Source: Candidatus Woesearchaeota archaeon (lineage in GTDB: Archaea; Nanobdellota; Nanobdellia; Woesearchaeales; GW2011-AR9). Taken from it: a stretch of 64,000 bases of DNA. The DNA lies in the NCBI GenBank assembly GCA_016185725.1, contig JACPNA010000042.1, positions 1,681 to 65,680 of the forward strand. Direction: 5' to 3'. This document shows, one piece after another, positions 2,486 to 28,204 of this stretch. The translations under genes and the position numbers were made by a program. Positions within the stretch are counted from its first letter, which is position 1. Every line of letters starts with the position of its first letter. A model generated the notes under the pieces. The model was not told where the DNA came from, did no database searches, and saw only the letters and a list, made by a program, of their open reading frames with translations.

Positions 2486-3412
2486 ATGAAATTATCAATA
2501 ATAATTCCTGCCTTTAACGAAGAAAAAAATATAACCCCCTTACATAATGAACTTTTAGCAACTTTAATTACTCTTAATTACAAATATGAAATTATTTTTA
2601 TTGATGATGGATCCACAGACAGCACTTTTAAAGAAATTCTTAAATTAAAAGAACAAGACAAAAATATTAGAATAATCAAGTTTAAAAAAAATTTTGGCCA
2701 AACCGCAGCGTGGAATGCTGGTTTTACTTTAGCAAAAGGAGATTTAATCATAGTAATGGATGCAGATTTGCAAAATGATCCTAAAGATATTCCTTTATTG
2801 ATAAACAAATTAAATGAAGGTTATGATATCGTCAGTGGTTGGCGTTACAATAGAAAAGATAATTTTTCAAAAAAAATATTCTCTTTCTTTGCTAACAAAT
2901 TAAGAAAATTATTAACCGGTGAAAAAATTCATGATTCTGGCTGTTCTTTGAAAATTTACAAAAAAGAATGTCTTAAAAATTTAAAATTATATGGTGAAAT
3001 GCATCGTTATATTACTGCAATTCTTTCTTGGGAAGGATATAAAATAGGAGAAATAAAAGTCAGCCATAATTTCAGAAATACTGGAAAAACAAAATACTCA
3101 TCATCAAGACTATTTAAGGGCATGATGGACCTTTTATTAATACTATTCTGGCAGAAATACTCGGGACGTCCTATTCATATTTTTGGACTATTGGGATTTT
3201 TATCCGCTTTGTTAGGTTTTCTTGCTGGAATAACTTCTTTATACTTCTGGTTTTTCAAAAATTTAAGTTTCTCCAAAACGTTTCTTCCTAATGCTGCAAT
3301 TTTCTTTATTCTAATGGGAATAAACTTGCTCATTTTTGGAATTATTGCAGATATATGTCTAAAAATATATTACAAAGATGAAGAACCTTATTTAATTGAA
3401 AAGATTATTTAG
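2486..3412 (+). CDS. GT2 glycosyltransferase with C-terminal TM helices (polyprenyl-phosphate sugar synthase, DPM1/GtrB-like)
   Basis: It contains IIIPAFNEEKNI...IIFIDDGSTDST and a DAD-like motif (VMDADLQNDP). The C-terminal ~80 aa are hydrophobic. Confidence 0.8.
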   Translation: MKLSIIIPAFNEEKNITPLHNELLATLITLNYKYEIIFIDDGSTDSTFKEILKLKEQDKNIRIIKFKKNFGQTAAWNAGFTLAKGDLIIVMDADLQNDPKDIPLLINKLNEGYDIVSGWRYNRKDNFSKKIFSFFANKLRKLLTGEKIHDSGCSLKIYKKECLKNLKLYGEMHRYITAILSWEGYKIGEIKVSHNFRNTGKTKYSSSRLFKGMMDLLLILFWQKYSGRPIHIFGLLGFLSALLGFLAGITSLYFWFFKNLSFSKTFLPNAAIFFILMGINLLIFGIIADICLKIYYKDEEPYLIEKII

Positions 3413-3416
3413 TATC

Positions 3417-3908
3417 CTACTTTTTATATGTTATTTTATTAATTTTTTTCAAGTAATCATTCATCAACATATCATTTTCTTCTGGAGCCCACTCCGCAAA
3501 TTCCCTATAAGTGGTAGGATTATATTTTCCAAGATACAACTCACAAAGAACTGAAGGTTCCAAAGTGATTATAGTATGATAAGTTTGTGCTGGTATTTCC
3601 ACAAAAACAGTATCCAAACTGGACAAAATATAACTTTCTCTAAAAGTACCATCATCATTAAAAATTATCACTTTCATTTTACCTAATATAAGTATCACTA
3701 TTTCTCTCCCATCATTCATTGGATGTTTGTGTGGTCTAACATAAGTTCCAGGAAGAAGTACATTAAACATTACTGCCGGAATTTCGCCCTTATCAGAACT
3801 TCTTAATAAATAAAAAGCTCTTTTCCTATCAGAAATTTTTGCTTTTTCAAATAATTCTTTTAAAATATTAGGTTCTAATTTTAATATATTACTTACATTT
3901 ATTCCCAT
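3417..3908 (-). CDS. Cupin-fold protein (WbuC-like)
   Basis: The 163-aa protein has a PHKHP metal-site-like motif in a small beta-rich sequence and sits in a glycan cluster. Confidence 0.4.
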   Translation of the reverse strand: MGINVSNILKLEPNILKELFEKAKISDRKRAFYLLRSSDKGEIPAVMFNVLLPGTYVRPHKHPMNDGREIVILILGKMKVIIFNDDGTFRESYILSSLDTVFVEIPAQTYHTIITLEPSVLCELYLGKYNPTTYREFAEWAPEENDMLMNDYLKKINKITYKK

Positions 3909-4025
3909 AAACTTTCAAATAAATGAAGCTTTATAAATTTTAATGAACATTTTTAATAATTAGCACAAAATCTGTTTTATTGTTACTATAAATTTATAAA
4001 TAGAAAAATATCAAAAATAAAACAT

Positions 4026-5741
4026 ATGAGTAAACTTTCATCGACAGATATTCAAAAAACAACAAAGTTGCTTGTTACTGGTGGTTGTGGGTTCATAGGT
4101 TCAAATTTTATAAGATATATTCTAGATAAATATCCTAATTGTGAAGTAATAAATATAGATAAATTATCTTATGGTGGTAATTTAGATAATCTTCGAGATA
4201 TAGAAACAAATCCGCATTACAAATTTATTAAAGGTGACATTTGTGACCAAAAATTAGTTGATGAAACAGTAAAAGAGATAGATGGAATAATTCATTTCGC
4301 CGCAGAAACACATGTAGATAGATCCATCCAAAGTTCAACTGATTTTATCAAAAGTAATGTAATAGGAACACAAGTATTACTAGAATCAGCTACAAAAAAC
4401 GGATTAAAAAGATTTCATTATATCTCTACTGATGAAGTATTTGGAGCATTAGGAGAAGAAGGAAAATTTAATGAAAAAAGTCCGCATGATCCTAAGAATC
4501 CTTATGCTGCAAGCAAGGCTTCTGCTGAACATCTAGTCCGTTCTTTTTTTCACACTCATCAATTGCCCATTACTATTTCTAATTGTTCTAACAATTATGG
4601 ACCCTATCAATACCCCGAAAAATTCATTCCGCTCTTTTTAACAAACTTAATAGAAAGTAAAAAAGTACCGGTTTATGGTAGTGGACTTAACGTAAGGGAT
4701 TGGATTCATGTAATAGATCATTGCCGAGCTATTGATTTAATTTATCATCAAGGAAAAATTGGTGAAAATTATTGTATTTGTACCAACGACGAAAAAAGAA
4801 ACATAGACTTAACTAAAGAGATATTGTCAGAATTTGGATTTGGAGAAGAGAAAATACATTTTGTTGTTGATAGAAAAGGACACGACTTTAGATATGCTAT
4901 GGATAATTCCAAAATAAAAGAATTGGGGTGGACACAAAGTATAGAATTAAAAAATGGTTTAAAAGATACGATTCAGTGGTACAAACAGAATGAATGGTGG
5001 TGGAAAAAACTCAAAGAAAATAAGGTAAAGGGAATAATACTAGCAGGAGGAACAGGAAGTAGATTACTTCCCTTAACAAAAGTTACAAATAAGCATTTAT
5101 TGCCTATCTATGATAAACCTATGATTTTTTATCCATTAGAAACGCTAAAAAAAGCGGGAATTACTGATATTATAATTGTCTGTGGGACGGAAAGTGTAGG
5201 TGACTTCCTAAAATTATTGGGTAGTGGAAAAGAATATGGAGTTAACTTAACATATCGAGTACAAGACGGCTCGGGAGGAATAGCACAAGCAGCTAGTTTA
5301 GCTAAAACTTTCGTTGGAAAAAGCAAATGTGTGATGATTTTGGGGGACAATATTTTTGAAGAAGATATTACTCCTTACGTTGATGCATTTGAAAAACAAA
5401 GAAAAGGAGCGAGAATTCTTCTTAAAAAAGTTGGAGAAAAAGAAGCAAAAAGATTTGGCGTTGCCATAGTTGAAGGAAAAAAAGTAACTTATGTTGAAGA
5501 AAAACCAGAGATTCCTAAATCTAACTTAGCAATGACTGGATTATATATGTTTGATGACGAAATATTTGATATTATCAGTCGCTTAAAACCTTCAAAAAGA
5601 GAGGAACTAGAAATAACCGACGCATTAGATGCTTATGTGAAAAAAGGAGAATTAGAATATGATATAATCACTGGATTTTGGTCAGATGCTGGTACATTTG
5701 AATCATTGCACAACTCTTCACTATTCATTAAAAAAACATAA
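4026..5741 (+). CDS. Bifunctional fusion protein. The N-terminal part is a dTDP-glucose 4,6-dehydratase (RmlB-like) and the C-terminal part is a glucose-1-phosphate thymidylyltransferase (RmlA-like).
   Basis: Residues 1-~330 contain LLVTGGCGFIGSNFIRYIL, YAASKASAEHL (YxxxK) and the HFAAETHVDRS motif of RmlB. Residues ~335-571 contain KGIILAGGTGSRLLPLTKVTNKHLLPIYDKPMIFYPLETL, the RmlA sugar-nucleotidyltransferase signature. The whole is a single uninterrupted 571-aa ORF. Confidence 0.8.
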   Translation: MSKLSSTDIQKTTKLLVTGGCGFIGSNFIRYILDKYPNCEVINIDKLSYGGNLDNLRDIETNPHYKFIKGDICDQKLVDETVKEIDGIIHFAAETHVDRSIQSSTDFIKSNVIGTQVLLESATKNGLKRFHYISTDEVFGALGEEGKFNEKSPHDPKNPYAASKASAEHLVRSFFHTHQLPITISNCSNNYGPYQYPEKFIPLFLTNLIESKKVPVYGSGLNVRDWIHVIDHCRAIDLIYHQGKIGENYCICTNDEKRNIDLTKEILSEFGFGEEKIHFVVDRKGHDFRYAMDNSKIKELGWTQSIELKNGLKDTIQWYKQNEWWWKKLKENKVKGIILAGGTGSRLLPLTKVTNKHLLPIYDKPMIFYPLETLKKAGITDIIIVCGTESVGDFLKLLGSGKEYGVNLTYRVQDGSGGIAQAASLAKTFVGKSKCVMILGDNIFEEDITPYVDAFEKQRKGARILLKKVGEKEAKRFGVAIVEGKKVTYVEEKPEIPKSNLAMTGLYMFDDEIFDIISRLKPSKREELEITDALDAYVKKGELEYDIITGFWSDAGTFESLHNSSLFIKKT

Positions 5742-5803: not shown

Positions 5804-6910
5804 ATGGAATATAAAATAACTTTATTCAAAGTTCATATGCCAAAATCTGTAATCAAGCCTCTTAAGAATACATTACTTAGTGGTTTTATTGGTCAAGGTC
5901 CTAAAGTTGAAGAATTCGAAAATATTTTGGGAAACTATATTGGAAATAAATACGTTCTTACTTTAAATTCTTGTACTTCTGCTATTCAATTAGCTCTTCG
6001 CTTGTGTAATGTTGGTTTTGGAGATGAAGTTATTTCTACTGCCATGACCTGTACTGCCACAAATGAACCCATTTTAGCTCTGGATGCGAAAATAATTTGG
6101 GCAGACATAAATCCTACTACCGGAAACATTGATCCAAAATCAATCAAAAATAAAATTACCAATAAAACCAAAGCAATTATAGCTATGCATTGGGGAGGAT
6201 ACCCTCCTGATTTAAAAGAAATTAATATTATTGCTAAAGAATATGGAATTAAAGTTATTGAAGATGCTGCTCATGCTTTTGGAGCAGAATACCAAGGACA
6301 AAAAATAGGTAATCATTCTGATTTTGTTTGTTTTTCATTTCAAGCAATAAAACACATTAATACTGTAGATGGAGGAGCATTGTTCTGTAAATCAGAAGAG
6401 GATTATAAAAGAGGTAAACTCTTAAGATGGTATGGTATAGATAGAGAAGAAAAAGATCGCTCTGATCATCGATTAGAAAAAGATATTAAAGAATATGGGT
6501 ATAAATTTCATATGAATGATGTTTGTGCAACAATTGGAATAGAACAAATGAAATTTATTGATAAAATTTTAGAAAAAAATAGAGCAAATATCAATACATT
6601 AAACAATGCCTTTCAAAACAACAATAAAATTAAATTATTAAGTTATAAAAATGATAGATTATCTGCGTATTGGTTATATACTATTCTTATAAAAAATAAA
6701 GATGATTTTAAAACAAAAATGAACGAGAAAGGGATAATGGTTTCTCCTGTACACGCACGTAATGATTCCCATACTATGTTTCAAGAATTTAGATGTGAAC
6801 TTCCCAATGTAGATAAATTTTATTCTGAAATGATTTGTATCCCTTCGGGATGGTGGCTTAAAAATGAAGAGATAGAATATATTATTAAAACTATCAACGA
6901 AGGATGGTAA
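5804..6910 (+). CDS. DegT/DnrJ/EryC1/StrS-family PLP-dependent sugar aminotransferase
   Basis: It contains DAAHAFGAEY and SFQAIKHI (the Schiff-base Lys region) and is 368 aa long. Confidence 0.85.
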   Translation: MEYKITLFKVHMPKSVIKPLKNTLLSGFIGQGPKVEEFENILGNYIGNKYVLTLNSCTSAIQLALRLCNVGFGDEVISTAMTCTATNEPILALDAKIIWADINPTTGNIDPKSIKNKITNKTKAIIAMHWGGYPPDLKEINIIAKEYGIKVIEDAAHAFGAEYQGQKIGNHSDFVCFSFQAIKHINTVDGGALFCKSEEDYKRGKLLRWYGIDREEKDRSDHRLEKDIKEYGYKFHMNDVCATIGIEQMKFIDKILEKNRANINTLNNAFQNNNKIKLLSYKNDRLSAYWLYTILIKNKDDFKTKMNEKGIMVSPVHARNDSHTMFQEFRCELPNVDKFYSEMICIPSGWWLKNEEIEYIIKTINEGW

Positions 6911-6940: not shown

Positions 6941-8041
6941 ATGACTAAATTATTATGTATTACTTTATTTGGAGAAATTTGTGGGAGTAGTAGAGTAAGA
7001 GTATTACAATTTATTCCCTTTCTAGAAAAAAATAACATTCAATGTACTTCTAAAAAATTATTTTCAGATGAATATTTTAAGATAATATCTAATCAAAAAA
7101 AATGTAATTACTTAATCAAAAATCTATATACTATAAGTATAGCAATTATTATGTTATTAAAAAAAATAAAATACTCATTTATTGCAAAAAATTATGATGT
7201 AATTATTATCCAAAAAGATGCATTTCCCTTGATATTACAAAAAATAATGTATAAAAGAAACAAAAATATCATTTTTGAATTTGATGACACGATTTTTGAA
7301 CCAAGTCAATTTGCAAAAGGTTTAAATAAAATTTATGATAGGTATAGAATAAATATTTTGCCGCACTTTTTGGAAATAAGTAAACATATCATCGCTGAGA
7401 ACAACTATCTAGCAAATTACGCAAAACAATACAACAACAATGTGTCTATCATAACTGCACCAATAGACACTGAAAAATATTTTCCTAAAAAAAAAGATAA
7501 AAATAATGAAATAATTATAGGTTGGATAGGAAGTGCTTTTACAACCAATCAATTAAAATTATTAATTTCTCCTTTTAAAAAAATAAGTGAAAAATATCCA
7601 GATATATTAATAAAATTAATAGGAGCAGATAAAAATATAGATTTTGATGATATTCCTGTGAAATATGTTAAATGGTCTTTAGAAACAGAAGTAGAAGAAT
7701 TACAAAGTTTTGATATAGGTTTAATGCCCTTAGATAATGATCCTTTTAATAAAGGTAGATTAGGGTATAAAATGATACAGTATATGAGTATAGGAATACC
7801 AATAGTAGCTTCTGATATGGGATTAAATAAAGAGATAATTACAGAATATGAAAATGGTTTTTTAGCTTCAAATGATCAAGAATGGATAAACAAATTATCA
7901 TTACTTATAGAAAATAAAAATTTAAGAAAAAGAATGGGCAAAAGTGGGAGAAAAAAAGCTGTTGAAGAATATTCTCTAAAAATTGCAGAACAAAAAATCT
8001 TAAGTATAATCAAAACTATAGCAGAGAATAGTGCAAATTAG
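6941..8041 (+). CDS. GT-B glycosyltransferase (GT4/group 1)
   Basis: The C-terminal domain has the EYENGFL / E-x7-E-like motif and the length, 366 aa, fits this family. Confidence 0.65.
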   Translation: MTKLLCITLFGEICGSSRVRVLQFIPFLEKNNIQCTSKKLFSDEYFKIISNQKKCNYLIKNLYTISIAIIMLLKKIKYSFIAKNYDVIIIQKDAFPLILQKIMYKRNKNIIFEFDDTIFEPSQFAKGLNKIYDRYRINILPHFLEISKHIIAENNYLANYAKQYNNNVSIITAPIDTEKYFPKKKDKNNEIIIGWIGSAFTTNQLKLLISPFKKISEKYPDILIKLIGADKNIDFDDIPVKYVKWSLETEVEELQSFDIGLMPLDNDPFNKGRLGYKMIQYMSIGIPIVASDMGLNKEIITEYENGFLASNDQEWINKLSLLIENKNLRKRMGKSGRKKAVEEYSLKIAEQKILSIIKTIAENSAN

Positions 8042-8255: not shown

Positions 8256-9698
8256 ATGGAAAATTACGATGTGATACTAGTAAACCCAGATTTTTTGAGT
8301 ATTTACAATGCCAAATTTCCTCCTTTTGCAGCTATGTTTTTATCATATGCTCTTAAAAAAGCTGGTTACTCCATTAGAATATTTGATACACAATTCGAAA
8401 AAGAAGATAATCTCTATGAATGTATCAAAAATAATAAACCACTATGGGTAGGATTCTCAGTAATGACTGGTCCAACCATAGCTCGAACTTTAAAAATATG
8501 CCAGAAAATTAGAGAGATCTCTTCAGATATAAAAATTGTCTGGGGAGGTCCGCATCCAACTTTACTTCCTAAAGATACTCTTAAACATAAACTTATTGAT
8601 ATTGTAGTCATATCAGAAGGAGAAAAAACCGTTGTGGAATTAACAAAAACACTAAAGAATAATGAAAACTTGGATTTAGTCAATGGAATTGGATATAAAA
8701 AAAATGAAGAGATTATAATTACTAAACCCAGAGAATTTACAACTGATTGGGATAATGAAGTGGGATTAGATTGGGATAATGTCAAAATAAATAATTACAT
8801 TGATTCTCAAGGCAAATATAAAAAAATTTCTTTAATTACTAGTCGTGGCTGTCCTTTTAGATGTAAATTTTGTTGGAATATAATGGCAAATAATAGACGC
8901 TGGAGAGGCTGGTCTGCTGAAAAAGTTATTGAAGAGATACAGCGTTTGCTTCCTTATGGGGTGAATTATATAACTTTAGAAGATGATAATTTTGGAGTTG
9001 ATTTAAATAGAGCTAAAAAAATTTTAAAATTTATGAAAACACGAGATATTTTATGGTCTTTTGAGGGTGTTCGCGTAGGAAAACACATCACCATAGAATT
9101 AATCCAATTTTTCAAAGAAAACAATTGCCATCATCTTTCTTTCGGAGCAGAATGTGGAAACCAGAAAATGCTTGATTACATTGCCAAAGATATTACTGTT
9201 GAACAACTAATTGAATCTGCTAGATTAACCGGACAATATAAATTAGGTGTTAGATATAGTTGGATTATTGGTTTTCCAAAAGAAACGCACGCTGATAGAA
9301 TGGATCTTATATCATTAATCAATAAAATTACTGAATTAAATCCTAATTGCGCTCATTATATTGGTATTTATGGACCTCACCCTGGTTCAGAAATATTTCA
9401 AGAAACTATTGAAGCGGGTTGGATTCCTCCTAAAAATGTAGAAGGATGGTCATTATTTAGAGAAGAAGTAGATTTACCTTACTGCAAAAATATGTGGTAT
9501 TTGAGGAGCATAGCTTTAGCTTGTTTCTTTAAATTTGCAGTAGACTCTTCTTTAAGAGCACACTCAAAAACAAAAATTATTTATAGAATTCCTTTTAAAA
9601 TTTTGAAGTTTGTATCTAACATAAGATGGAAATATAGATTATTCCACTTTCCAATTGAATACAAAATACTAACATTAATAAAAAATAAAATTACTTGA
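8256..9698 (+). CDS. B12-binding domain radical SAM protein (class B rSAM)
   Basis: An N-terminal B12-binding-like domain is followed by the CPFRCKFC CxxxCxxC cluster motif. The protein is 480 aa. Confidence 0.7.
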   Translation: MENYDVILVNPDFLSIYNAKFPPFAAMFLSYALKKAGYSIRIFDTQFEKEDNLYECIKNNKPLWVGFSVMTGPTIARTLKICQKIREISSDIKIVWGGPHPTLLPKDTLKHKLIDIVVISEGEKTVVELTKTLKNNENLDLVNGIGYKKNEEIIITKPREFTTDWDNEVGLDWDNVKINNYIDSQGKYKKISLITSRGCPFRCKFCWNIMANNRRWRGWSAEKVIEEIQRLLPYGVNYITLEDDNFGVDLNRAKKILKFMKTRDILWSFEGVRVGKHITIELIQFFKENNCHHLSFGAECGNQKMLDYIAKDITVEQLIESARLTGQYKLGVRYSWIIGFPKETHADRMDLISLINKITELNPNCAHYIGIYGPHPGSEIFQETIEAGWIPPKNVEGWSLFREEVDLPYCKNMWYLRSIALACFFKFAVDSSLRAHSKTKIIYRIPFKILKFVSNIRWKYRLFHFPIEYKILTLIKNKIT

Positions 9699-11484: not shown

Positions 11485-12246
11485 ATGAATATGAAGAATG
11501 AATATTTTCCAGAAAAAACGGACTATCCGGATAATTTAGATATTATTAAGACAAAAAAATCAAAACAGTACTATAACGCCATAGAATCTTCTGCTTCAGC
11601 TTACTTTGATAGTCCCAAAACAGTAAAAAAACTATTTTTTAAACGCCTTACTGAAGTAATATCCCTTATTGGAGATAAAAAATATAACCTTACATTGGAC
11701 GCAGGAACAGGTATCGGCATTGTGCTTCCATATCTCAGTCAAAAAAGTCAAGAAATTATTGCTATTGATTATTCTGATATTGTTAATTATGCTGCTTTTA
11801 TGTGTGAAAAGAAAGGAATAAAAAATGTCTCTTTTCAAAAAGTAGATTTAAATAAATTTACTTCTAAAAACAAATTTGATTTAATACTTTGTCTTAGCGT
11901 ATTAGAACACATAGAAAATCCCGCAATCATTTTTGAAAAATTCAATGAAATTTTACATGAGCATGGAACTTTAATAGTGGGTTATCCTATCGAAACAAGT
12001 ATTGTCAAATTGTTTAGGCACTTAGAGTCTTATTTTAGAAAAAGCATTAACAAAAAAATCATAGAGGATAGTTACAAAAAAACGGAAGAATTCGCAGGTC
12101 ATATCTCTGACTGGAAGAAAATAGACAGAGCATTGATCAAGAACTTTAATATAGAAAAAAAAATAGATTTGAAATTCTGCTTCTTAAAATATTATGCAAT
12201 AAGAAAAGTGCACAAAAAAAAAGAAGATAACCTTCATGAAACTTAA
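11485..12246 (+). CDS. SAM-dependent methyltransferase (Methyltransf_11/23-like)
   Basis: It contains LDAGTGIGIV (motif I) and DLILCLSVLEHIENP (motif II/post II). Confidence 0.65.
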   Translation: MNMKNEYFPEKTDYPDNLDIIKTKKSKQYYNAIESSASAYFDSPKTVKKLFFKRLTEVISLIGDKKYNLTLDAGTGIGIVLPYLSQKSQEIIAIDYSDIVNYAAFMCEKKGIKNVSFQKVDLNKFTSKNKFDLILCLSVLEHIENPAIIFEKFNEILHEHGTLIVGYPIETSIVKLFRHLESYFRKSINKKIIEDSYKKTEEFAGHISDWKKIDRALIKNFNIEKKIDLKFCFLKYYAIRKVHKKKEDNLHET

Positions 12247-13894
12247 AAGCGAACAAATTTACATATTAATTATCTTTGGGATATTACTATTTTTAGGTTT
12301 TGCAAGTTTATTTAGCAATAAATTAACCCATGATTTCCCGCAAGGATTTAATGCTAACGACGCTTTTTACAAATACAACCGGGCCCATAATCTTGCAGAA
12401 ACTAGTAACTGGAAAAATATAGAAGAGTATACTGTCGAAGGAAGAAAAGATCTTCTTCAGGATGACAGCCCTCTAGCTTATGTACTCACAGTAGTTTTTT
12501 CAAGCAATTCAAAAATACCAGATTTTGATGCTTACCAATTGATAGGAATAATCTCTAAAATTTTAGCGGCGTTTATAATATATATGATTATTAGGAAATT
12601 CAATCCAAAAGTTGCCCTTATTTCATTGGTCATAGTGCCATTCATATTCATAAAAAACAATTTCATCTCTTTTTATTTTGGTTGGATTCCTATCACTCTA
12701 GCTGCTTCAATATTAATACTCCTCATCTGGCTCCTTTTAAACTTTGAATTGAAATCTGCATGGTTAATCTTAGGAATAATTATAAGTTCTGTCTTACTAA
12801 CACATCTTTCTGAATTTTATTACGCCATTCTTATTACAAATATAATCTTAATATATTTGCTAATAAAAAATAAAAACAGAAAAATCTTAACGAAAACAAG
12901 TTATGCTTTAGTGATATTTATCATTTTAACATTCTATTTTTTACCAATTTTTATCAATAATTCTCTTAGTTTAGCACAAGACAAATCTGTTGTTACTATT
13001 AGCGCACTCAAACAGCCATCCTTCCCCATAACCCTTCTTTCAGATTTTAGCTTCTTTCAATATTTCATTATTCTTGGTATCTTAATATCATTTTATTATT
13101 GCTACCAACACAAAGAAAAAATAATCTACTTTTTACCACTCTATATATTAATAATCATCTCTAACTTTCCTTTATTAGGCATGCACGATCGCTTTTATCA
13201 ATTACGCTATTTTTGGCCTATCATATTTATGATCTTCTTTGGATTAAGTATTTATTATATTATCAACTTAATTCTAAGACTAAAACCATTTAAAAATATA
13301 AATGATAATCTCCAAAACATTATTTACATCATCTTAACTTTATTATTTATTATATTATCTATTAACTTATATTACACGCCTCCCTCACCAAATAGCTTAG
13401 TAGTAAACAAAGATATGTGGGAGGGTATGCAATGGGTAAAAAATAATATTCCTGAAAACAAAACAATACTCATTGTTCATGGTGATAGTTATCAGCAACA
13501 TGGAATCTTCTTGATGTTTGGGAAAGTAATTCACCAGATAAAAGATGAAGATTATTATACCAAATTAAATTCTGGACAAATATCCAAAAATTATACTATT
13601 CGCAAATTTATTCACGGCTATGATTATTACAAAAGAACAGGATTTTTTACTTTTGAACCAGTTAAATTAGGTAAACCAGAATGGGAACAAACTCGTGGTT
13701 GGGAAGAAACCAATCTTTGCGATTTTGAATATTATGTAATCGACAAACCCAGTAGATTTCCGCAAGTAATAAATTACAACGCTAAAATAAGAGCAACATT
13801 ACTAAACAATAAAGATTTCACCGAAATATTTAGTAATGGATGGTATAGTATACTAAAAAATAATAACCCTGGAGCTGATTGCCTTGGAAAATAA
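12236..13894 (+). CDS. Large polytopic membrane protein with a C-terminal extracytoplasmic domain; putative GT-C-fold glycosyltransferase
   Basis: The 552-aa protein has more than 10 predicted TM helices followed by a soluble domain (MWEGMQWVKNNIPENK...). This domain is paralogous to the C-terminal region of the 14285-16273 protein. Confidence 0.4.
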   Translation: MKLKSEQIYILIIFGILLFLGFASLFSNKLTHDFPQGFNANDAFYKYNRAHNLAETSNWKNIEEYTVEGRKDLLQDDSPLAYVLTVVFSSNSKIPDFDAYQLIGIISKILAAFIIYMIIRKFNPKVALISLVIVPFIFIKNNFISFYFGWIPITLAASILILLIWLLLNFELKSAWLILGIIISSVLLTHLSEFYYAILITNIILIYLLIKNKNRKILTKTSYALVIFIILTFYFLPIFINNSLSLAQDKSVVTISALKQPSFPITLLSDFSFFQYFIILGILISFYYCYQHKEKIIYFLPLYILIIISNFPLLGMHDRFYQLRYFWPIIFMIFFGLSIYYIINLILRLKPFKNINDNLQNIIYIILTLLFIILSINLYYTPPSPNSLVVNKDMWEGMQWVKNNIPENKTILIVHGDSYQQHGIFLMFGKVIHQIKDEDYYTKLNSGQISKNYTIRKFIHGYDYYKRTGFFTFEPVKLGKPEWEQTRGWEETNLCDFEYYVIDKPSRFPQVINYNAKIRATLLNNKDFTEIFSNGWYSILKNNNPGADCLGK

Positions 13895-14279
13895 CACCCA
13901 AAACAACTATAATAATTTAAAAAACCAAATTAAATTAGATCTAAAAAGCTTTGGAATAACCACTTTAATTTTAATAGTTATATTTATTGGAATTTTCTAT
14001 AAAGAAAACATACTAACCACCATTTGGGTAGTTCTTTCATTCTTACTTACTTTCACTATACCTGGATTCATTCTTTGCTACTTGTGGCATGATCAATTAG
14101 ATTTTCTAGAACGTTTCATAATCAGCAATATGCTCGGTTTAATCTCCGTAGGTATCCTAAGTTATAATATTTCTATTTATACCGGTATTAACATTAAGAT
14201 TATCAGTATAATTACACCAATAATAGTAACTATCATTTCTGGATCAATAGTATATTTCACTGAAAAAAAAGAAAGATAA
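13884..14279 (+). CDS. Small membrane protein (4 TM), hypothetical
   Basis: The 131-aa protein is hydrophobic and is translationally coupled (11-nt overlap) to the upstream GT-C-like gene. Confidence 0.35.
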   Translation: MENNTQNNYNNLKNQIKLDLKSFGITTLILIVIFIGIFYKENILTTIWVVLSFLLTFTIPGFILCYLWHDQLDFLERFIISNMLGLISVGILSYNISIYTGINIKIISIITPIIVTIISGSIVYFTEKKER

Positions 14280-20809: not shown

Positions 20810-22945
20810 TTAATTTTTAACATTGAAGTTTCCATTCAAAATCTCCTCCACTCTAAAACAAATTTCCATTGATTCATATGCCTTATTCGCATCAATCAAT
20901 TCTGATTTTTCTCCGCGTAATTTTTTCAACAATTCTACAAGTTCAGCATAGTGCCCTTTATCTTGTTTTATACTGGATTTTTTACCATTAATAAACAACT
21001 GTTCAAAATCATCTAATACTGCAACATTACCTCCGCCAAATATCTCAATTCTTTCTTTAGATAAAGTATCATTAGCATAATCAGTATACACTAAAGTAGC
21101 AACAGATCCATCCCCATATTTAATCGTGACTGCCGCATTATTACTATCTATAACTCTTCCGTCCGAATTGATCTTATAAGCATTAATCTCTGAAAAACGA
21201 GTTCCAATTATATAATTAAAAAAACTAAACATATGGCACATCTCTCCTATAATCCTTCCCCCGCCTTCCTCTGGATCATTAACCCAATCCTCTCTTCCCG
21301 TCGGCTTGGTATTAACGCGATAATTAATTATTAGCGGATAATCACGTGTTTCAAAAAATGATTTAACCTGCTGAGTCAGAGGAGCATAATTTCTATTGAA
21401 ACCAACACTATACACCAATCCCTTCCCCTTCAACGTATTTAAAATGCTCCTGCATTCCTCTCGAGTAATCCCCATTGGTTTCTCTACAAATACCTGCTTC
21501 CCTTTTTTTAATGCTTCAATAGCAATTTTAGCATGTAAATTATGCCTTGTTGAAATAACCACTAAATGTATATCTTTATCATTAAGTACTTCTGTATAAT
21601 CTGCAGAACAATACTCCGCTCCATTAAGTAACGCTAAATTTTTAGCAGAACCTGGGTTTTTTGTTACAATGGCTTTGAGATTAAAATCATCTATCTTTTT
21701 AACATTAACTAAATGCGTGCCTTTTGCAAAATTTCCCGCACCAATTAGACCAACATTTATCTTTCCCACTATCTTTTTATTTGATGTAACTAAGCGCAAC
21801 GGCTCTTCCTTATTAAGTTCCTGGGGATAACTCAAAAGTACTATTAACGGAACAGGATTAGCTTTACTCAATGTTAAATATGCTTCTTCTGCCTCATCAA
21901 TTGAAAATTCTTTCTCTATTAACTCTTCAACAGAAATTTTCCGTTCCGCTAACAACCGTAAAAACTCTTGCATATTTCTATTTTCTGTCCATCGAACATA
22001 TCCCAAAGGATAATCCTGGCCTTTTTCCTCATAGTCTTTATCATATCTCCCCGGTCCGTATGAAGTAGAAATTAAAAAATCTAACTCTTTTTTATACATA
22101 ACCTCCCTATTGATAGTTATCGGAACCTTGCCCAACAATACAACTCTTCCTTTTTTTCTGCACATTTCCATAGAATTATTTATTATGTCCTTATTATCTG
22201 TGGCTGCACTGATGATTACACCATCTACACCTATCCCTTTCGTAAAATGAATTGCATTTTTAACAAAATCTGTTGTAAAAAATCTATGAACCTTAGCTTT
22301 TTTAGCTCTTTTTTCATTGATATCAATACCAATAACCTGACAGCCGATAGCACTGAGGATCTGACAAACTATTTGTCCTAACAATCCTAAACCATACACC
22401 ACAATAATCTCTCCGAATGAAGGATTTAATCTTCTCACACTTTGAATTGCTATTGAACCTATAGTTGTTAACGAAGCTTCTTTTAAAGAAACATTCTTAG
22501 GAATTTTTACAACTAAATTTTTAGGCACACAAACAATTTCCGCATGGCTCGCATAATTTTGTCCTCCGCAAGCAACATCATCATTAACAGAAAATTCCCT
22601 GACATTCTTGCCAACTTCCATCACCTTGCCAGAACAACTATATCCCAACCGCCACCAATTATTTAACATTTGTTTAACATAATTATACGTTTTGAAATAC
22701 CCCTCTTTTTTAGCCTTAATTATAACACTCTTAACCAACTCTTTCTTTTCTAAAGCAGTTTGATATAGCGGCTGTTTTAATTTTTTAACCGTATTCAGTT
22801 CCGTTCCGCTGCTTATTACAGAATACAAAACCTTAACTTTAACTTCATTATCTCCGCAGACAGGAACTGTAACTTCTTCAACCTGTACTCTCCCTTTCTT
22901 AGCAAAAACTTGTTTCATAGTAATACTACTCCATTTTAGCAACAA
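20810..22945 (-). CDS. Bi-domain oxidoreductase. The N-terminal part is a zinc-type MDR alcohol dehydrogenase and the C-terminal part is a Gfo/Idh/MocA NAD(P) oxidoreductase.
   Basis: The N-terminal domain has GroES-like and Rossmann regions (VVYGLGLLGQIV). The C-terminal domain begins KINVGLIGAGNFAKGTHL (Gfo/Idh/MocA). The whole protein is 711 aa. Confidence 0.7.
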   Translation of the reverse strand: MLLKWSSITMKQVFAKKGRVQVEEVTVPVCGDNEVKVKVLYSVISSGTELNTVKKLKQPLYQTALEKKELVKSVIIKAKKEGYFKTYNYVKQMLNNWWRLGYSCSGKVMEVGKNVREFSVNDDVACGGQNYASHAEIVCVPKNLVVKIPKNVSLKEASLTTIGSIAIQSVRRLNPSFGEIIVVYGLGLLGQIVCQILSAIGCQVIGIDINEKRAKKAKVHRFFTTDFVKNAIHFTKGIGVDGVIISAATDNKDIINNSMEMCRKKGRVVLLGKVPITINREVMYKKELDFLISTSYGPGRYDKDYEEKGQDYPLGYVRWTENRNMQEFLRLLAERKISVEELIEKEFSIDEAEEAYLTLSKANPVPLIVLLSYPQELNKEEPLRLVTSNKKIVGKINVGLIGAGNFAKGTHLVNVKKIDDFNLKAIVTKNPGSAKNLALLNGAEYCSADYTEVLNDKDIHLVVISTRHNLHAKIAIEALKKGKQVFVEKPMGITREECRSILNTLKGKGLVYSVGFNRNYAPLTQQVKSFFETRDYPLIINYRVNTKPTGREDWVNDPEEGGGRIIGEMCHMFSFFNYIIGTRFSEINAYKINSDGRVIDSNNAAVTIKYGDGSVATLVYTDYANDTLSKERIEIFGGGNVAVLDDFEQLFINGKKSSIKQDKGHYAELVELLKKLRGEKSELIDANKAYESMEICFRVEEILNGNFNVKN

Positions 22946-22977: not shown

Positions 22978-24870
22978 ATGACAAATAAGCTAAAGTTTTA
23001 TAGTAACAGACTTAAATGTATGAGTTTGCCGGAACTTCTCTACCGAATTAAATGGAAAACCAAACTAGAAACATATTATAAAATTTTAAGCTTAAAACAA
23101 CAAAAAATAAACCTTCCATTTGAACAATTACAGCAAGATTTTAACTCAACAAAATTTTGGTTTGAATATTCCCAAGAAAAAAACAAAGAAAAAATATTAC
23201 AAGAATATTATCCTAATCTTACCCCAAAAAGCACCATCTCAAAAGCTAATGCCTACCTGCAACACACCATTCCCATCTATGAACTTAGAAAAAACCTTGG
23301 GAAAGAAATAAATTGGAACAAAGATTACAAAACAGAAAAGATTTGGACACGCCAATTCATTGGTAAAATCCATCATGCAGATTCTAATTATGGTTATGTT
23401 CGCTACATTTGGGAGCTTAATCGCTGTAATCACCTCGTAACTTTAGCCCAAGCTTATTTTCTCACTGAAAACGAAAAATACGCTCAAGAGATCATTAGCC
23501 AAATAGGATCCTGGATTGGACAAAACCCTTACTTGAAAACTATCAACTGGTTTTCCGGATTAGAATTAGGAACCCGTATCATCAACTGGACCATTGCTCT
23601 AAAACTCATCAAAAAATCATCGTATTTGACACAAGAAAGATTAAATAACGCCTTATCATCAATTTATCTCCAAACAGATTTTACTTATCATAACCTATCT
23701 AAATACTCTTCTGCTAACAACCATTTGGTAGGAGAATTAGCAAGTATCAAATTAACAACTGCTGTCTTCCCCCACTTCCCTCACGCTAAAAAATGGAACA
23801 AAATAAGTACAAAAAAAATAGACCGTGAAATACTTCAACAAATTTATGAAGACGGTGTAGGTAAAGAGCAATCAGTAAATTACTTATTATTTATCCTAGA
23901 CCTCTATTTTTGGAGTTCCTTGGCTATTGACCAAGAAATAAAACCAGAAATAAAAACAAGAATAATAAAAAGTAGAGAATTCTTATCCGCCCTAGAAATA
24001 GGAACATTTCTACCATCCATTGGCGATACTGATGAAGCCTATGTATCCGGCATTCATTCTGAAAAAGAAAGAATTAATTTCTTTAACCATTGGACTGCCA
24101 AAATCAATCATAACCCACAAATCAAAAATACCCCTAGCAAACTATTCCCCTTAGGCGGCTATTTCATCTCAAAAAACACTGCACAAAACACCACTTTAAT
24201 CTTCGACTGTGGTCCTCTTGGCTACCTTTCTACTTCCGGACATGGTCACTGTGATGCCCTTAGTTTTATCCTCACCATAAACAACAAACCATTTTTTACT
24301 GATCCTGGAACGTATGTCTATCATGAAGGAAAAGAATGGCGTAATTACTTCAAATCCACTGAAGCACACAATACTATCAAAATTGATCAAAGAGATCAAT
24401 CGCAAATAACTGGTCCATTCACCTACGGAAAAAAAGCCCAAACAAAAATAATCAATTCCAAAATCAATCCCATAATTGACGAAATTACTGCTTCACATAA
24501 CGGCTATAAAAACAGAGGAGTAATTCATCAACGTACAATAACCCATGACAAAAAAGCACAAGAAATTACTATTTTAGACATATTACAAACAAAAAACAAT
24601 AAACCGCATGAATTATCTCTCTTCTTCAATTTATCTCCAACAATAAAAATACAAGAATCATCAAATAATCACTTCATTTTATCCCAAGAAAAAACAAAAA
24701 TAAAACTAACTTTAGATCCCTCATTAAATACTACGCAACACCATGGCGAAACAAACCCTATTTTTGGTTGGAATTCACCTCAATTCGGCATAAAAATACC
24801 CTCCTTGTGCTTAGAAAGTACAACTAAAATAACCACAACTACGACCTTTAAGACAACAATCACTTATTAA
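22978..24870 (+). CDS. Heparinase II/III-like family protein (polysaccharide lyase-like fold; function in glycan biosynthesis unknown)
   Basis: It contains NWFSGLELGTRIINW (Hepar_II_III_N) and a GHGHCDALSF motif, and has 630 aa. Confidence 0.65.
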   Translation: MTNKLKFYSNRLKCMSLPELLYRIKWKTKLETYYKILSLKQQKINLPFEQLQQDFNSTKFWFEYSQEKNKEKILQEYYPNLTPKSTISKANAYLQHTIPIYELRKNLGKEINWNKDYKTEKIWTRQFIGKIHHADSNYGYVRYIWELNRCNHLVTLAQAYFLTENEKYAQEIISQIGSWIGQNPYLKTINWFSGLELGTRIINWTIALKLIKKSSYLTQERLNNALSSIYLQTDFTYHNLSKYSSANNHLVGELASIKLTTAVFPHFPHAKKWNKISTKKIDREILQQIYEDGVGKEQSVNYLLFILDLYFWSSLAIDQEIKPEIKTRIIKSREFLSALEIGTFLPSIGDTDEAYVSGIHSEKERINFFNHWTAKINHNPQIKNTPSKLFPLGGYFISKNTAQNTTLIFDCGPLGYLSTSGHGHCDALSFILTINNKPFFTDPGTYVYHEGKEWRNYFKSTEAHNTIKIDQRDQSQITGPFTYGKKAQTKIINSKINPIIDEITASHNGYKNRGVIHQRTITHDKKAQEITILDILQTKNNKPHELSLFFNLSPTIKIQESSNNHFILSQEKTKIKLTLDPSLNTTQHHGETNPIFGWNSPQFGIKIPSLCLESTTKITTTTTFKTTITY

Positions 24871-25937: not shown

Positions 25938-27236
25938 TCAAACAAGTAATTTATAATTTTTAAATTCTGATCCTTTTTTCTTCAATAAGCCGTTTAAATC
26001 AATAATCTTCCCCTCATACCATTTTAATTTATCAATGCCTAAATAATCTACTGACCCTATAATTATAGTGTCAAATTTATTCAAATCTGGTTCTTTTACC
26101 GCCAAAAGTCCCATTTGTGGCAGTGTACTTTCAATAAATGTTTTATTAGCTCCTAATAATAAATCTTGTTCAAAAAGATTATCTACAAATTGTACATTGT
26201 AATTTAAATCCTTCAAATTACGCATTAACTTAACGTATGGGCTTTCTCTAAAATCATCTGTTCCATTCTTAAAAGTTATCCCTGAAATTAAAATATTTTG
26301 AGGATTTCCCTCTGTGATTTTTTGTAATGAATATCGTATCTGTTCATCATTCGATTTCATTACTGATTCTAAAACTAATGGAAATGTGCCCGAAGTTAAA
26401 GTTAAAATACCTTTCAAATCCTTCGGTAAACATGAACCCCCAAACGCAAATCCTGGTTTTAAATAATAAGGAGATAAATTTAAAGTCTTATCTTGACAAA
26501 AAATATTCATAATCTTATGGCTATCTATGCCTAATTCATTGCAAATTCTCCCTATCTCATTGGCAAACCCTACTTTTAACCCATGAAATGCATTATTAGT
26601 ATACTTAAATATCTCCGCTTCTTCTAACTTAACACGATGAATATTTTCTTTAACCCCTATCTTATCATAAAATTGTTCTAATAAATCGCCAGATTTTCCA
26701 TCAGCTTGACCAATTATTGTAAATGGTGGATGATAAAAATCTTGCACCGATGTGCCTTCCCTTAAAAATTCAGGGTTCATGCATCCCCCAAAACTTTTCC
26801 CCAGATATAATCCTGAATTTTTTTCAATGACTTTAATAAAATTTTGAGTTGTTCCAGGAGGAACAGTACTTCGAATAACAAATAGATGATAACCAGATTT
26901 ATTACGCAATTCTAAATTTAATTGTTCAGCTAAATTAGATATAGCATCTAAATTAATGCTGCCGTCTTCTCTTGATGGGGTTCCTACACATATAAATGAA
27001 ATATCAGTCTCATGTAAGACTTCCCCTAATGACTCTGTAACTTTAATCCTTTGTTTTCTTACTCCTTCTAATAATAACGCCGAAACTTCTTTCTCCTTAA
27101 AAGGAGAAACCCCTTTTTGAATAAGAGCATTCTTTTTTACATCAATATCATATCCCAAAACTGTAATACCTTCTTGTGCTAAGCAACCGGCAAGTGTTGC
27201 TCCTACATAACCAAAACCAAACACACTAACCTTCAT
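25938..27236 (-). CDS. Nucleotide-sugar 6-dehydrogenase (UDP-ManNAc/UDP-GlcNAc/UDP-Glc dehydrogenase family)
   Basis: It has an N-terminal NAD fold (VFGFGYVGATLAGCLA) and the catalytic Cys motif GGSCLPKD, and has 432 aa. Confidence 0.8.
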   Translation of the reverse strand: MKVSVFGFGYVGATLAGCLAQEGITVLGYDIDVKKNALIQKGVSPFKEKEVSALLLEGVRKQRIKVTESLGEVLHETDISFICVGTPSREDGSINLDAISNLAEQLNLELRNKSGYHLFVIRSTVPPGTTQNFIKVIEKNSGLYLGKSFGGCMNPEFLREGTSVQDFYHPPFTIIGQADGKSGDLLEQFYDKIGVKENIHRVKLEEAEIFKYTNNAFHGLKVGFANEIGRICNELGIDSHKIMNIFCQDKTLNLSPYYLKPGFAFGGSCLPKDLKGILTLTSGTFPLVLESVMKSNDEQIRYSLQKITEGNPQNILISGITFKNGTDDFRESPYVKLMRNLKDLNYNVQFVDNLFEQDLLLGANKTFIESTLPQMGLLAVKEPDLNKFDTIIIGSVDYLGIDKLKWYEGKIIDLNGLLKKKGSEFKNYKLLV

Positions 27237-28201
27237 TTGGGATTCCTCCTAAAATTATACACCAAATCATACCACTCCACCAACCTTCTCACACCTTCTT
27301 CAATACTGACTTTTGGTTCATAACCTAACATTTCCCTGCTTTTAGAAACATCGGCAAATGTCATCTCTACATCCCCTTGCTGTTTCTCCACATATCGAAT
27401 TTTCACCTTTTTATTTAAATTATTCTCAATTAATGAAACAAAATAATTTAGTTGTACTGGATTTGCACCACCTAAATTAAATAGTTCATATTTATGGCTC
27501 TTATCCAACGCAGCTACAACTCCCCCAACAATATCGCTAATATAAGTATAATCTCGTCTAGATGTTCCCTCTCCATAAATTTCTATCTCTTCTCCTCGAG
27601 CAATCTTATCCACAAATTTAAATGGAGCCATGTCCGGCCTTCCTCTTGGACCATATACCGTAAAGAATCGCAAACAAGAACAATTTAAATCATAAAGATG
27701 ATTATAATTATAACAAAATAACTCTCCCGCTTTCTTACAAGCAGCATAAGGAGATATCGGCTTATCAACCATATCTGTTTCTTTAAAACAACCCTCTGTC
27801 CTATTACCATAAACCGAAGAACTTGACGCAAACACGAAATTATCTATCCCATATTGTTTTGCCAATTCCAACAAATTAAGCGTCCCTCTAATATTAACCT
27901 CTTCGTATAAAAAAGGATTATTAATCGAAGGTCTAATCCCTGCTCGAGCCGCTAAATGTATTATCTTCCGTGGATTTTCTTTTTCAAAAACACTTCGCAT
28001 TAACGAAAAATCTAAAATATCCCCGCGACATAATCGACAATTTCTTTTTTCTAAACAATCAACAATATTCCGCTCCTTAATCCTTGGATTATAATAATCA
28101 TTAAAATTATCCACACAAACAACTTCATCTTCTCGCGCTAACAATTCTTCACAAACATGGCTTCCGATAAATCCTGCTCCGCCTGTAACTAATATTTTCA
28201 T
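27233..28201 (-). CDS. UDP-glucuronate 4-epimerase-like SDR (NAD-dependent epimerase)
   Basis: It contains [24 protein letters not shown] (YxxxK) and RFFTVYGPRGRPDMA, which is characteristic of UDP-GlcA 4-epimerases. Confidence 0.7.
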   Translation of the reverse strand: MKILVTGGAGFIGSHVCEELLAREDEVVCVDNFNDYYNPRIKERNIVDCLEKRNCRLCRGDILDFSLMRSVFEKENPRKIIHLAARAGIRPSINNPFLYEEVNIRGTLNLLELAKQYGIDNFVFASSSSVYGNRTEGCFKETDMVDKPISPYAACKKAGELFCYNYNHLYDLNCSCLRFFTVYGPRGRPDMAPFKFVDKIARGEEIEIYGEGTSRRDYTYISDIVGGVVAALDKSHKYELFNLGGANPVQLNYFVSLIENNLNKKVKIRYVEKQQGDVEMTFADVSKSREMLGYEPKVSIEEGVRRLVEWYDLVYNFRRNPK

Positions 28202-28204
28202 ATT

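Follow-up and report, generated by a model that had tools for sequence, protein, structure and literature searches.

One open reading frame of an archaeal genome joins a dTDP-glucose 4,6-dehydratase domain (RmlB) to a short-form RmlA domain through a linker of three residues; RmlA and RmlB stand for the first two steps of the dTDP-sugar pathway. We consider it very probable that this frame is a natural fusion gene of a DPANN archaeon and encodes a bifunctional enzyme, that it originated by stop-codon loss, and that its product supplies a neighboring DegT aminotransferase and a surface-glycan gene island. NCBI lists an identical protein, assigned to a Candidatus Woesearchaeota archaeon, and names it 'dTDP-glucose 4,6-dehydratase' only. 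Because this name covers just the dehydratase, the RmlA activity escapes annotation in such genomes, and a reconstruction of DPANN pathways could count the first step as absent when it is not. Below, the window refers to the whole 64 kb stretch of DNA that was analysed.

Architecture of the fused gene

The raw sequence contains no stop and no frame break from 4026 to 5741 on the forward strand (Table 1). The initial annotation described this frame as a complete RmlB followed by a catalytically complete RmlA, a description borne out by Pfam and NCBIfam models, alignments and motifs. The HMM search that it called for found both Pfam domains in one chain: Epimerase/GDP_Man_Dehyd covers residues 16-315 (E 3e-74), and NTP_transferase covers residues 335-569 (E 2.4e-57). 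The gene belongs to the RmlB-RmlA fusion architecture class, which is not a curated family, by virtue of its single frame and its conservation in independent sequences.

Table 1. Positions of the fused gene, its parts and its neighbors in the window
Feature	Position	Strand	Basis or remarks
Fused rmlB-rmlA gene	4026..5741	+	571 codons plus stop; ATG start; both Pfam domains in one ORF
RmlB domain, predicted dTDP-glucose 4,6-dehydratase	4065..5015	+	residues 14-330; TIGR01181, 6bi4/2hun alignment, fold
Linker E-N-K	5016..5024	+	residues 331-333; edges from 6bi4 and RfbA alignments and the model
Short-form RmlA domain, predicted glucose-1-phosphate thymidylyltransferase	5025..5738	+	residues 334-571; RfbA 3hl3/4ecm alignment, fold
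Probable archaeal promoter region	3909..4025	.	AT-rich, divergent intergenic; TATA-like boxes ~3986-4003, read from sequence
DegT/DnrJ/EryC1 PLP-dependent sugar aminotransferase	5804..6910	+	PF01041 E 6.5e-91
WbuC-family cupin, divergent	3417..3908	-	TIGR04366 105 bits vs cutoff 42; DUF6016
GT2 glycosyltransferase, 308 aa	2486..3412	+	PF00535 E 1e-37, residues 4-165
GT1/GT4 glycosyltransferase, downstream of DegT	6941..8041	+	PF00534, PF13692
B12-binding radical SAM enzyme, same gene string	8256..9698	+	PF02310, PF04055

The junction sequence first quoted for this protein (..WYKQNEWWWKKLKENKVKGIIL..) is correct. The RmlB alignment stops at K330, equivalent to the penultimate residue of the 6bi4 chain, and V334 pairs with the start Met of Bacillus anthracis RfbA. 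In the predicted model, a helix spanning residues 323-330 is followed by a strand at residues 335-339. The monomer model of the entire fusion has a pTM of 0.63, and the orientation between its domains is uncertain.

Upstream of the fused gene, the intergenic region with TATA-like boxes is probably its promoter region. A scan for sigma-70 promoters and terminators revealed no enrichment and is uninformative, since such a scan is not suited to archaeal DNA. With one promoter and one chain, the two activities would be supplied in a fixed 1:1 ratio.

Neighboring genes and the probable product

In the pathway that we propose, the C-terminal short-form RmlA would convert glucose-1-phosphate and dTTP into dTDP-glucose. 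The N-terminal RmlB would then oxidise, dehydrate and reduce dTDP-glucose with a tightly bound NAD+, yielding dTDP-4-keto-6-deoxy-D-glucose, the usual branch-point intermediate of the pathway. Most likely, this intermediate feeds the adjacent DegT enzyme and glycosyltransferases encoded in a large gene island for surface glycans, and the end product would most likely be an amino-dideoxyhexose rather than rhamnose. Neither RmlC nor RmlD was found among the genes from 701 to 34489 (about 34 kb annotated of the 64 kb window), and no dTDP_sugar_isom match was found there. Distant fused orthologs adjoin an FdtA-type isomerase, a C-methyltransferase and a DegT protein, which are other users of dTDP-4-keto-6-deoxyglucose.

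The DegT gene does lie immediately downstream, as first described, and the locus of an ortholog with 92% identity shows the same arrangement. In that locus the DegT protein has the same position with 89% identity, and the GT2 protein shows 93% identity. A cupin of 65% identity stands beside the same ortholog in two metagenomes, so that the order cupin-fusion-DegT is kept. The GT2 at 2486..3412 is a candidate polyprenyl-phosphate sugar synthase. All contexts examined have a B12-binding radical SAM gene in the vicinity of the fused gene, with copies that are mutually only 20-27% identical. We also considered the WbuC cupin as a possible substitute for RmlC or FdtA, but it has no Pfam or NCBIfam match beyond DUF6016 and WbuC.

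The proposal that DegT forms a dTDP-4-amino-4,6-dideoxyhexose is no more than plausible. Its closest solved relatives are 4xau/4zwv (268 bits), CalS13 (4zas) and ArnB, which are C-4 aminotransferases acting on 4-keto-pentoses; the C-4 type agrees with the proposal. A literature search returned nothing on the substrates of AtmS13/CalS13. On the other hand, DegT scores below every equivalog cutoff compared (PseC, 248 against 423.5; PRK11706, 174 against 375; DesI, 144 against 650). It can be assigned to superfamily PF01041, and not to a specific type such as the WecE/VioA/DesI 4-aminotransferases. A 4-amino-4,6-dideoxyhexose is a plausible product, and an Arn-like source of the substrate has to be weighed.

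In the Arn-like case, DegT would aminate a UDP-4-keto-pentose supplied by the UDP-glucose dehydrogenases and SDRs at 25.9-30.5 kb, and the fused enzyme would feed a different step. The 4-keto-pentose chemistry of the solved relatives of DegT agrees with this, as does the content of the island, with its two UDP-glucose dehydrogenases, two SDRs, ArnC-like GT2s and PMT/ArnT-like GT-C proteins. The dehydrogenase genes, however, are located about 20 kb away on the opposite strand, whereas only 62 nt separate DegT from the end of the fused gene, with both on one strand, and the fusion-DegT pair is still adjacent, with a spacing of 7 nt, in the 92% ortholog from two metagenomes. We therefore regard the UDP-4-keto-pentose as a less likely substrate, though one that deserves serious consideration. 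An Arn-like route of this kind would involve one GT2 and one GT-C transferase. Apart from the fused gene, the annotated part has SDR paralogs of the RmlB superfamily only at 27233-29155, where Epimerase-family genes lie between the two UDP-glucose dehydrogenase genes.

Catalytic residues of the two halves

With 452.2 bits, the RmlB half exceeds the cutoff (365.1) of TIGR01181, the equivalog model for dTDP-glucose 4,6-dehydratase, and residues 14-329 span all 321 positions of the model. Over its full length it aligns with 6bi4 (chain residues 25-345 of 346; 373 bits) and with 2hun, and its predicted fold superimposes on both with TMt values of 0.95-0.96 and an rmsd of 1.4-1.8 Å. The motifs GGCGFIGS at residues 19-26, STDEV (T135, D136, E137) and Y160xxxK164 are invariant among 18 fused homologs of the same domain order. 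By comparison with published RmlB structures, these represent the NAD-binding GxxGxxG, the catalytic Thr-Asp-Glu and the YxxxK pair. We infer that this half is a dTDP-glucose 4,6-dehydratase.

The RmlA half aligns end to end with B. anthracis RfbA (3hl3/4ecm; 274 bits, query residues 2-233 of 239) at 52% identity, and the predicted fold matches with a TMt of 0.91. Lack of nucleotidyltransferase residues in this half had been named as a finding that would overturn the bifunctional reading. The residues are all there, in the motifs GGTGSRL (R346), K356, Q413, GDN (D441), EKP (K493) and WSDAG (D554). Across the 18 fusions, five of these six residues (K356, Q413, D441, K493, D554) are invariant and R346 nearly so. 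By comparison with the RmlA structures of P. aeruginosa and E. coli, R346, K356, D441, K493 and D554 are the catalytic residues, and Q413 corresponds to the thymine-reading Gln.

This half scores below both rmlA equivalog cutoffs, with 231.2 bits against 360.65 for TIGR01207 and 230.6 against 320.25 for TIGR01208. The matches reach position 237 of the 286 in TIGR01207 and position 230 of the 353 in TIGR01208, each from position 1, and the low scores result from the absence of the C-terminal ~50 residues in the short form. Its last residue corresponds to about position 243 of the 292-aa RmlA, and residues ~244-292 of that enzyme are without a counterpart. Accordingly, it is a short-form RmlA-like enzyme by sequence and not a classical RmlA. 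As the equivalog cutoffs are not reached, its nucleotide specificity rests on the similarity to B. anthracis RfbA together with the conserved Q413, which point to a glucose-1-phosphate thymidylyltransferase as the predicted activity.

A further explanation accepts the fusion as real and supposes that one of the domains survives as a remnant without catalytic activity, or that the enzyme uses another nucleotide (UTP/UDP-glucose), so that the product would not be dTDP-4-keto-6-deoxyglucose. It would account for the sub-cutoff scores of the RmlA half, and short sugar-1-phosphate nucleotidyltransferases are promiscuous in vitro (PMC10375476). RmlB-like folds can also carry other chemistry, as in the decarboxylase EvdS6, which shares 42% identity with the RmlB half. 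However, every catalytic and nucleotide-contact residue that we checked, including Q413, is there and conserved across the fusions, the RmlB half passes a dTDP-specific model, and the RmlA half best matches an RfbA whose crystal contained dTDP-glucose (4ecm). This makes a remnant domain or another nucleotide improbable, and we retain the bifunctional dTDP enzyme.

The missing C-terminal segment may bear on regulation. In RmlA, E256 is a contact in the allosteric feedback site for dTDP-L-rhamnose (PMC10375476), and the segment that contains it is absent from the RmlA half. Since the classical allosteric segment is missing, feedback control, if any, would have to follow another mechanism. We speculate, with little confidence, that the near-zero linker may lock an RmlB dimer and an RmlA oligomer into a fixed assembly, such as a D2 tetramer, which channels dTDP-glucose and, owing to the short RmlA, possibly escapes feedback by dTDP-sugars. 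If so, the fusion would provide genome-reduced DPANN archaea with a streamlined, self-contained module for supplying 4-keto-6-deoxyhexose. As a naturally occurring example, it could also be used to study how a dimeric SDR is combined with an oligomeric nucleotidyltransferase in a single particle. A compact fused enzyme could serve as a convenient single-protein catalyst for dTDP-4-keto-6-deoxyglucose, the entry to many rare sugars, and this value is modest; the RmlB-RmlA fusion opens no long-standing question.

Origin of the fusion and comparison with known systems

A frameshift or stop near 5000-5040 had been named at the outset as the sign of two genes merged in error. A separate Logan assembly (SRR12113384) is identical in DNA over 2327 bp, and the frame is open across the junction in orthologs of 92% (two separate metagenomes), 79%, 64% (11 contigs), 63% and 62% identity. 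In the 92% ortholog, the junction nucleotides and the length of the A-run differ, and the frame is still kept. Between W326 and G336 there is no in-frame ATG, GTG or TTG, so a separate RmlA would have no start ahead of its essential glycine loop. The GC content by codon position is equal in the two halves. The A-rich, homopolymer-prone junction (GGAAAAAACTCAAAGAAAATAAGG), the stop codons found there in both shifted frames and the absence of fusions among the best 80 loci from GTDB species-representative genomes would fit an indel or a miscalled stop merging adjacent rmlB and rmlA, but the identical second assembly, the open frame in five ortholog clusters that have diverged and come from different samples, the missing start and the uniform codon-position GC effectively refute such an artefact. 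Internal initiation of a separate RmlA was considered as well and rejected; the only nearby in-frame alternative is a TTG at L300, within the RmlB fold.

The domain order, inverted relative to the reaction order, had been singled out as remarkable, and this is not borne out. Unfused loci commonly carry rmlB and then rmlA (L002, L004, L015, L016, L028, L050, L068), and fusions of both orders are similarly frequent, with 24 B-A clusters and 15 A-B clusters. Fusions of the forms RmlA-RmlB, RmlB-RmlD-RmlA, RmlD-RmlA and RmlB-RmlD are present as well. In the archaeal locus L002, the unfused rmlB and rmlA lie in one frame with a single stop between them (..WWWKPLKGKKGAF*MVKGVILAGG), and many fusions retain the former start Met of RmlA, as KMKGIIL. 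By loss of the stop codon between such an adjacent same-strand pair, the fusion most likely arose, and we infer that the B-A order comes from this origin and not from functional logic. In the domain tree, the RmlB-RmlA form requires at least eight gains or losses, and the tree implies several independent origins.

The best 80 loci of the species-representative scan are unfused adjacent genes or lone rmlB, and this suggests rarity. Among the best 150 matches listed for 50%-identity representatives there are four RmlA/RmlB fusions; no match listed exceeds 59% identity, and this set is unfit for counting fused clusters. RmlA/RmlB fusions are mentioned in a 2019 survey (bioRxiv 10.1101/854612), and JGI names one of them 'dTDP-glucose 4,6-dehydratase/glucose-1-phosphate thymidylyltransferase short form'. 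Gene fusions of the RmlB-RmlA type are rare, have recurred and were on record before, and the present one is in this sense fairly ordinary. Our literature search found no solved structure, biochemical study or enzyme assay for any RmlB-RmlA fusion. In the PDB, no chain spans both domains, and TM-scores with normalisation to the query reach 0.54 at most.

Single polypeptides that combine enzymes of nucleotide-sugar pathways are known from RmlC-RmlD fusions, plant RHM/NRS-ER and E. coli HldE (10.1101/854612; PMC4022621). They join other domain pairs, and several of them are biochemically characterised, whereas our search found no such work on the RmlB-RmlA type. Fusions from public metagenomes and MAGs (P0002-P0062) hold RmlB and RmlA in one chain, and the 24 clusters counted above share the B-A order. 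P0002-P0006 are orthologs of the 571-aa protein, with 62-92% identity and an equally short junction, whereas in other B-A fusions the linker can reach ~70 residues and the RmlA is of the long form, and further fusions differ by the A-B order or by an RmlD inserted between the domains.

The classical long-form RmlA of P. aeruginosa (1fxo) and S. enterica (1iim), with 292-293 aa, shares the catalytic core and active-site residues with the RmlA half, which scores 187-195 bits against these structures over chain residues 2-240; the long form has the E256 segment that the fusion lacks. The closest solved relatives are RfbB (6bi4; TMt 0.96) and RfbA of B. anthracis. We found no report of the oligomeric state of this RfbA, which is likewise a short form of ~245 aa without the C-terminal extension. 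In B. anthracis, RfbB and RfbA are two stand-alone proteins, whereas in the archaeon their counterparts form one chain with a linker of three residues.

The fused chain and its two halves

The rmlB-rmlA gene reads as one ORF of 571 codons starting with ATG, in which the raw sequence contains no stop or frame break. Pfam places Epimerase/GDP_Man_Dehyd (residues 16–315) and NTP_transferase (residues 335–569) in the same chain, so the initial annotation of both enzymes within a single uninterrupted ORF is borne out. The fusion scores 452 bits against the NCBIfam equivalog for dTDP-glucose 4,6-dehydratase (TIGR01181, cutoff 365). The two NCBIfam rmlA equivalogs give about 231 bits each, short of the 360 and 320 they require, and are matched only up to model positions ~237 and ~230. 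We therefore read the C-terminal half as a probable short-form thymidylyltransferase; the RmlA described as 'complete' is so in its catalytic residues, not as the full-length classical form.

The RmlB half carries GGCGFIGS, T135-D136-E137 and Y160xxxK164, and the RmlA half carries GGTGSRL (R346), K356, Q413, D441, K493 and D554. The roles of these residues follow those in solved RmlA and RmlB structures. An alignment of 18 fusions shows little or no variation at these positions, and the fusion is probably bifunctional.

The RmlB half aligns end to end with P. horikoshii 2hun and with B. anthracis RfbB (6bi4; query 13–330 on chain 25–345 of 346). The RmlA half aligns with B. anthracis RfbA (3hl3/4ecm; 274 bits) from V334, opposite the RfbA start Met, nearly to the RfbA end. 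From these two limits, the linker comprises just three residues, E331-N332-K333. In the AlphaFold2 monomer model, built with 18 same-order fusions as the alignment (mean pLDDT 85.5), the final helix of RmlB (323–330) leads almost directly to the first strand of RmlA (335–339); the pTM is only 0.63, making the mutual orientation of the domains unreliable. Foldseek matched the halves separately to PDB structures (TMt 0.95–0.96 for RmlB, 0.91 for RmlA). It found no PDB chain spanning both (best query-normalised TM-score 0.54), in agreement with a PDB sequence search.

The 13-residue N-terminal extension MSKLSSTDIQKTT is shared with the 92% identical ortholog and absent from other homologs. Since its pLDDT is also below 50, translation could start downstream, for example at TTG 4068.

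The fusion is real. NCBI lists the identical protein (source 'Candidatus Woesearchaeota archaeon'), and over 2327 bp the window agrees without a difference with a separate Logan assembly of run SRR12113384. Fused orthologs at 92% (two different metagenomes), 79%, 64% (11 contigs), 63% and 62% identity keep the junction in one open frame. At the junction of the 92% ortholog, the A-run differs in length and GTA becomes ATA, with the frame nonetheless kept. No in-frame ATG, GTG or TTG lies between the WWW motif of RmlB and the essential glycine loop of RmlA, so RmlA could not be translated separately. An artefactual merging of two adjacent genes is thus ruled out by the identical records, the open orthologs, their differing junction nucleotides and the missing RmlA start. 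Codon-position GC is equal in both halves.

Gene order, related fusions and prior record

The domain order, described initially as reversed relative to the pathway, loses its significance on comparison. Both rml gene orders occur at unfused loci of species-representative genomes, and rmlB precedes rmlA in archaeal and Patescibacteria MAGs (loci L002, L004, L015, L016, L028, L050, L068). At L002 (junction ...WWWKPLKGKKGAF*MVKGVILAGG), the rmlB stop is followed immediately, in the same frame, by the rmlA ATG; a single substitution in such a stop codon would produce a fusion like that of the window. Many fusions in the alignment of 18 retain the former start Met, as ..KMKGIIL...

Other fusion orders also exist. 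Protein databases hold 15 clusters of RmlA-RmlB and 16 of RmlB-RmlD-RmlA, the latter about 880–930 aa with RmlD at about 350–640 (P0012, P0017, P0018, P0021–P0026 and others). RmlD-RmlA and RmlB-RmlD fusions also occur among metagenome proteins, with P0194 (513 aa) and P0154 (716 aa) as examples. Linkers in RmlB-RmlA fusions are between about 0 and about 70 residues long, and both short and long RmlA subtypes are found. A rough neighbour-joining tree of 100 RmlA domains requires at least 8 changes for RmlB-RmlA, at least 5 for RmlA-RmlB and 1 for the triple fusions, which form one clade. This indicates repeated, independent fusion or fission. Together with the order at unfused loci, it suggests that the domains simply follow the order of the ancestral genes, and that this order carries no particular significance for function.

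Separately, inserts of about 290–480 residues split the RmlB homologs P0180 (697 aa) and P0209 (822 aa), and probably P0187, P0245 and P0260. In the two scanned, P0180 and P0209, the inserts match Intein_splicing, and that of P0180 also LAGLIDADG homing endonuclease; both are thus intein-containing dTDP-glucose dehydratases.

Across 185,579 species representatives, none of the best 80 loci is fused. In the protein collection, the best 120 matches include at least 55 fused clusters (90% identity). A 2019 survey of 21,964 genomes reported RmlA/RmlB fusions in 'only 1 or 2 instances', and also noted an RmlA-RmlB fusion that was annotated just as RmlB (bioRxiv 10.1101/854612). NCBI names the present protein RmlB only. 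JGI gives one fused homolog both enzyme names. The literature search found no biochemical or structural work on RmlB-RmlA fusions. The fusion type is a recurrent, opportunistic merger of operon genes, already in databases and literature; possible uses of the protein are as a compact biocatalyst and as a structural test case.

The glycan island and the likely pathway

Archaeal markers in the window (L19e, L5e/L18, L30/L7e, Sec61-type SecY, EMC3-like insertase) show the host to be archaeal. The GC content of the window is 33%. Besides the genes in the table, the surface-glycan island encodes a SIS isomerase, a GHMP kinase, GT2s, a GT4, methyltransferases, two LPG_synthase_TM proteins, two PMT/ArnT-like GT-C proteins, two UDP-glucose dehydrogenases and two SDRs. 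The window has no second RmlA paralog, and the ~34 kb annotated yielded no RmlC (dTDP_sugar_isom) match and no RmlD. The other SDR paralogs are only Epimerase-family genes, flanked by the two UDP-glucose dehydrogenase genes.

Features of the window and of compared loci
Sequence	Position	Strand	Feature
Window	1 to about 30.5 kb		Surface-glycan island
Window	3417–3908	-	WbuC-family cupin (TIGR04366/DUF6016), divergent to fusion
Window	4026–5741	+	rmlB-rmlA fusion
Window	4026–4067	+	N-terminal extension
Window	4068	+	TTG, possible start
Window	5804–6910	+	DegT aminotransferase
Window	8256–9698		B12-binding radical SAM
L082	3572–5182		B12-binding radical SAM
L084	3477–4865		B12-binding radical SAM
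L086	8737–10146		B12-binding radical SAM
L087	1–986		B12-binding radical SAM
L086	1470–3086		538 aa; Methyltransf_13/14 sugar C-methyltransferase + FdtA-like 3,4-ketoisomerase
Window	12236–13894		ORF, no Pfam match; in island
Window	13884–14279		ORF, no Pfam match; in island
Window	20810–22945	-	710 aa; zinc-type alcohol dehydrogenase + GFO/IDH/MocA oxidoreductase domains
Window	22978–24870	+	Heparinase II/III-like
Window	33389–34489		ORF, no Pfam match
Window	36452–37225		ORF, no Pfam match

The 92% ortholog keeps the cupin-fusion-DegT arrangement, its DegT being 89% identical. Near more distant fused orthologs the aminotransferases differ (only about 28% identical), and the neighbours include an FdtA-type ketoisomerase and a sugar C-methyltransferase, other users of dTDP-4-keto-6-deoxyglucose. 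With such varied neighbours, the fused enzyme seems to supply the 4-keto-6-deoxy branch-point intermediate as a general module, while the tailoring steps differ from genome to genome.

The solved proteins nearest to DegT are 4xau/4zwv, CalS13 and ArnB, which are C-4 aminotransferases; the 4-amino product proposed initially is hence plausible, although DegT passes the cutoff of no equivalog. These relatives also act on 4-keto-pentoses, which keeps a DegT substrate from an Arn-like UDP-pentose route of the same island a live alternative.

All contexts examined have a B12-binding radical SAM gene no more than a few kb from the fused gene. Identity to the window copy is just 20–27%, so what recurs is an enzyme class, not one ortholog. 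A sugar C-methylase or similar is one possibility for its role. The WbuC cupin might isomerise or epimerise the 4-keto sugar, a role no model supports. The 538-aa protein near the L086 fused ortholog is a further fusion of dTDP-sugar pathway enzymes. The heparinase II/III-like protein, unusual for a DPANN archaeon, adjoins the 710-aa dehydrogenase fusion, and four ORFs of 131–552 aa lack a Pfam match at E ≤ 1e-4.

Regulation and quaternary arrangement

A 222-symmetric tetramer could in principle house an RmlB-type dimer interface together with an RmlA-type oligomer. In the classical RmlA tetramer, dTDP-L-rhamnose binds to an allosteric site between subunits, of which E256 is a part (PMC10375476). 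The RmlA half stops at the equivalent of residue ~243, before E256, so by alignment this site would not exist in the same form in the fusion. The stand-alone B. anthracis RfbA likewise ends at the ~243 equivalent.
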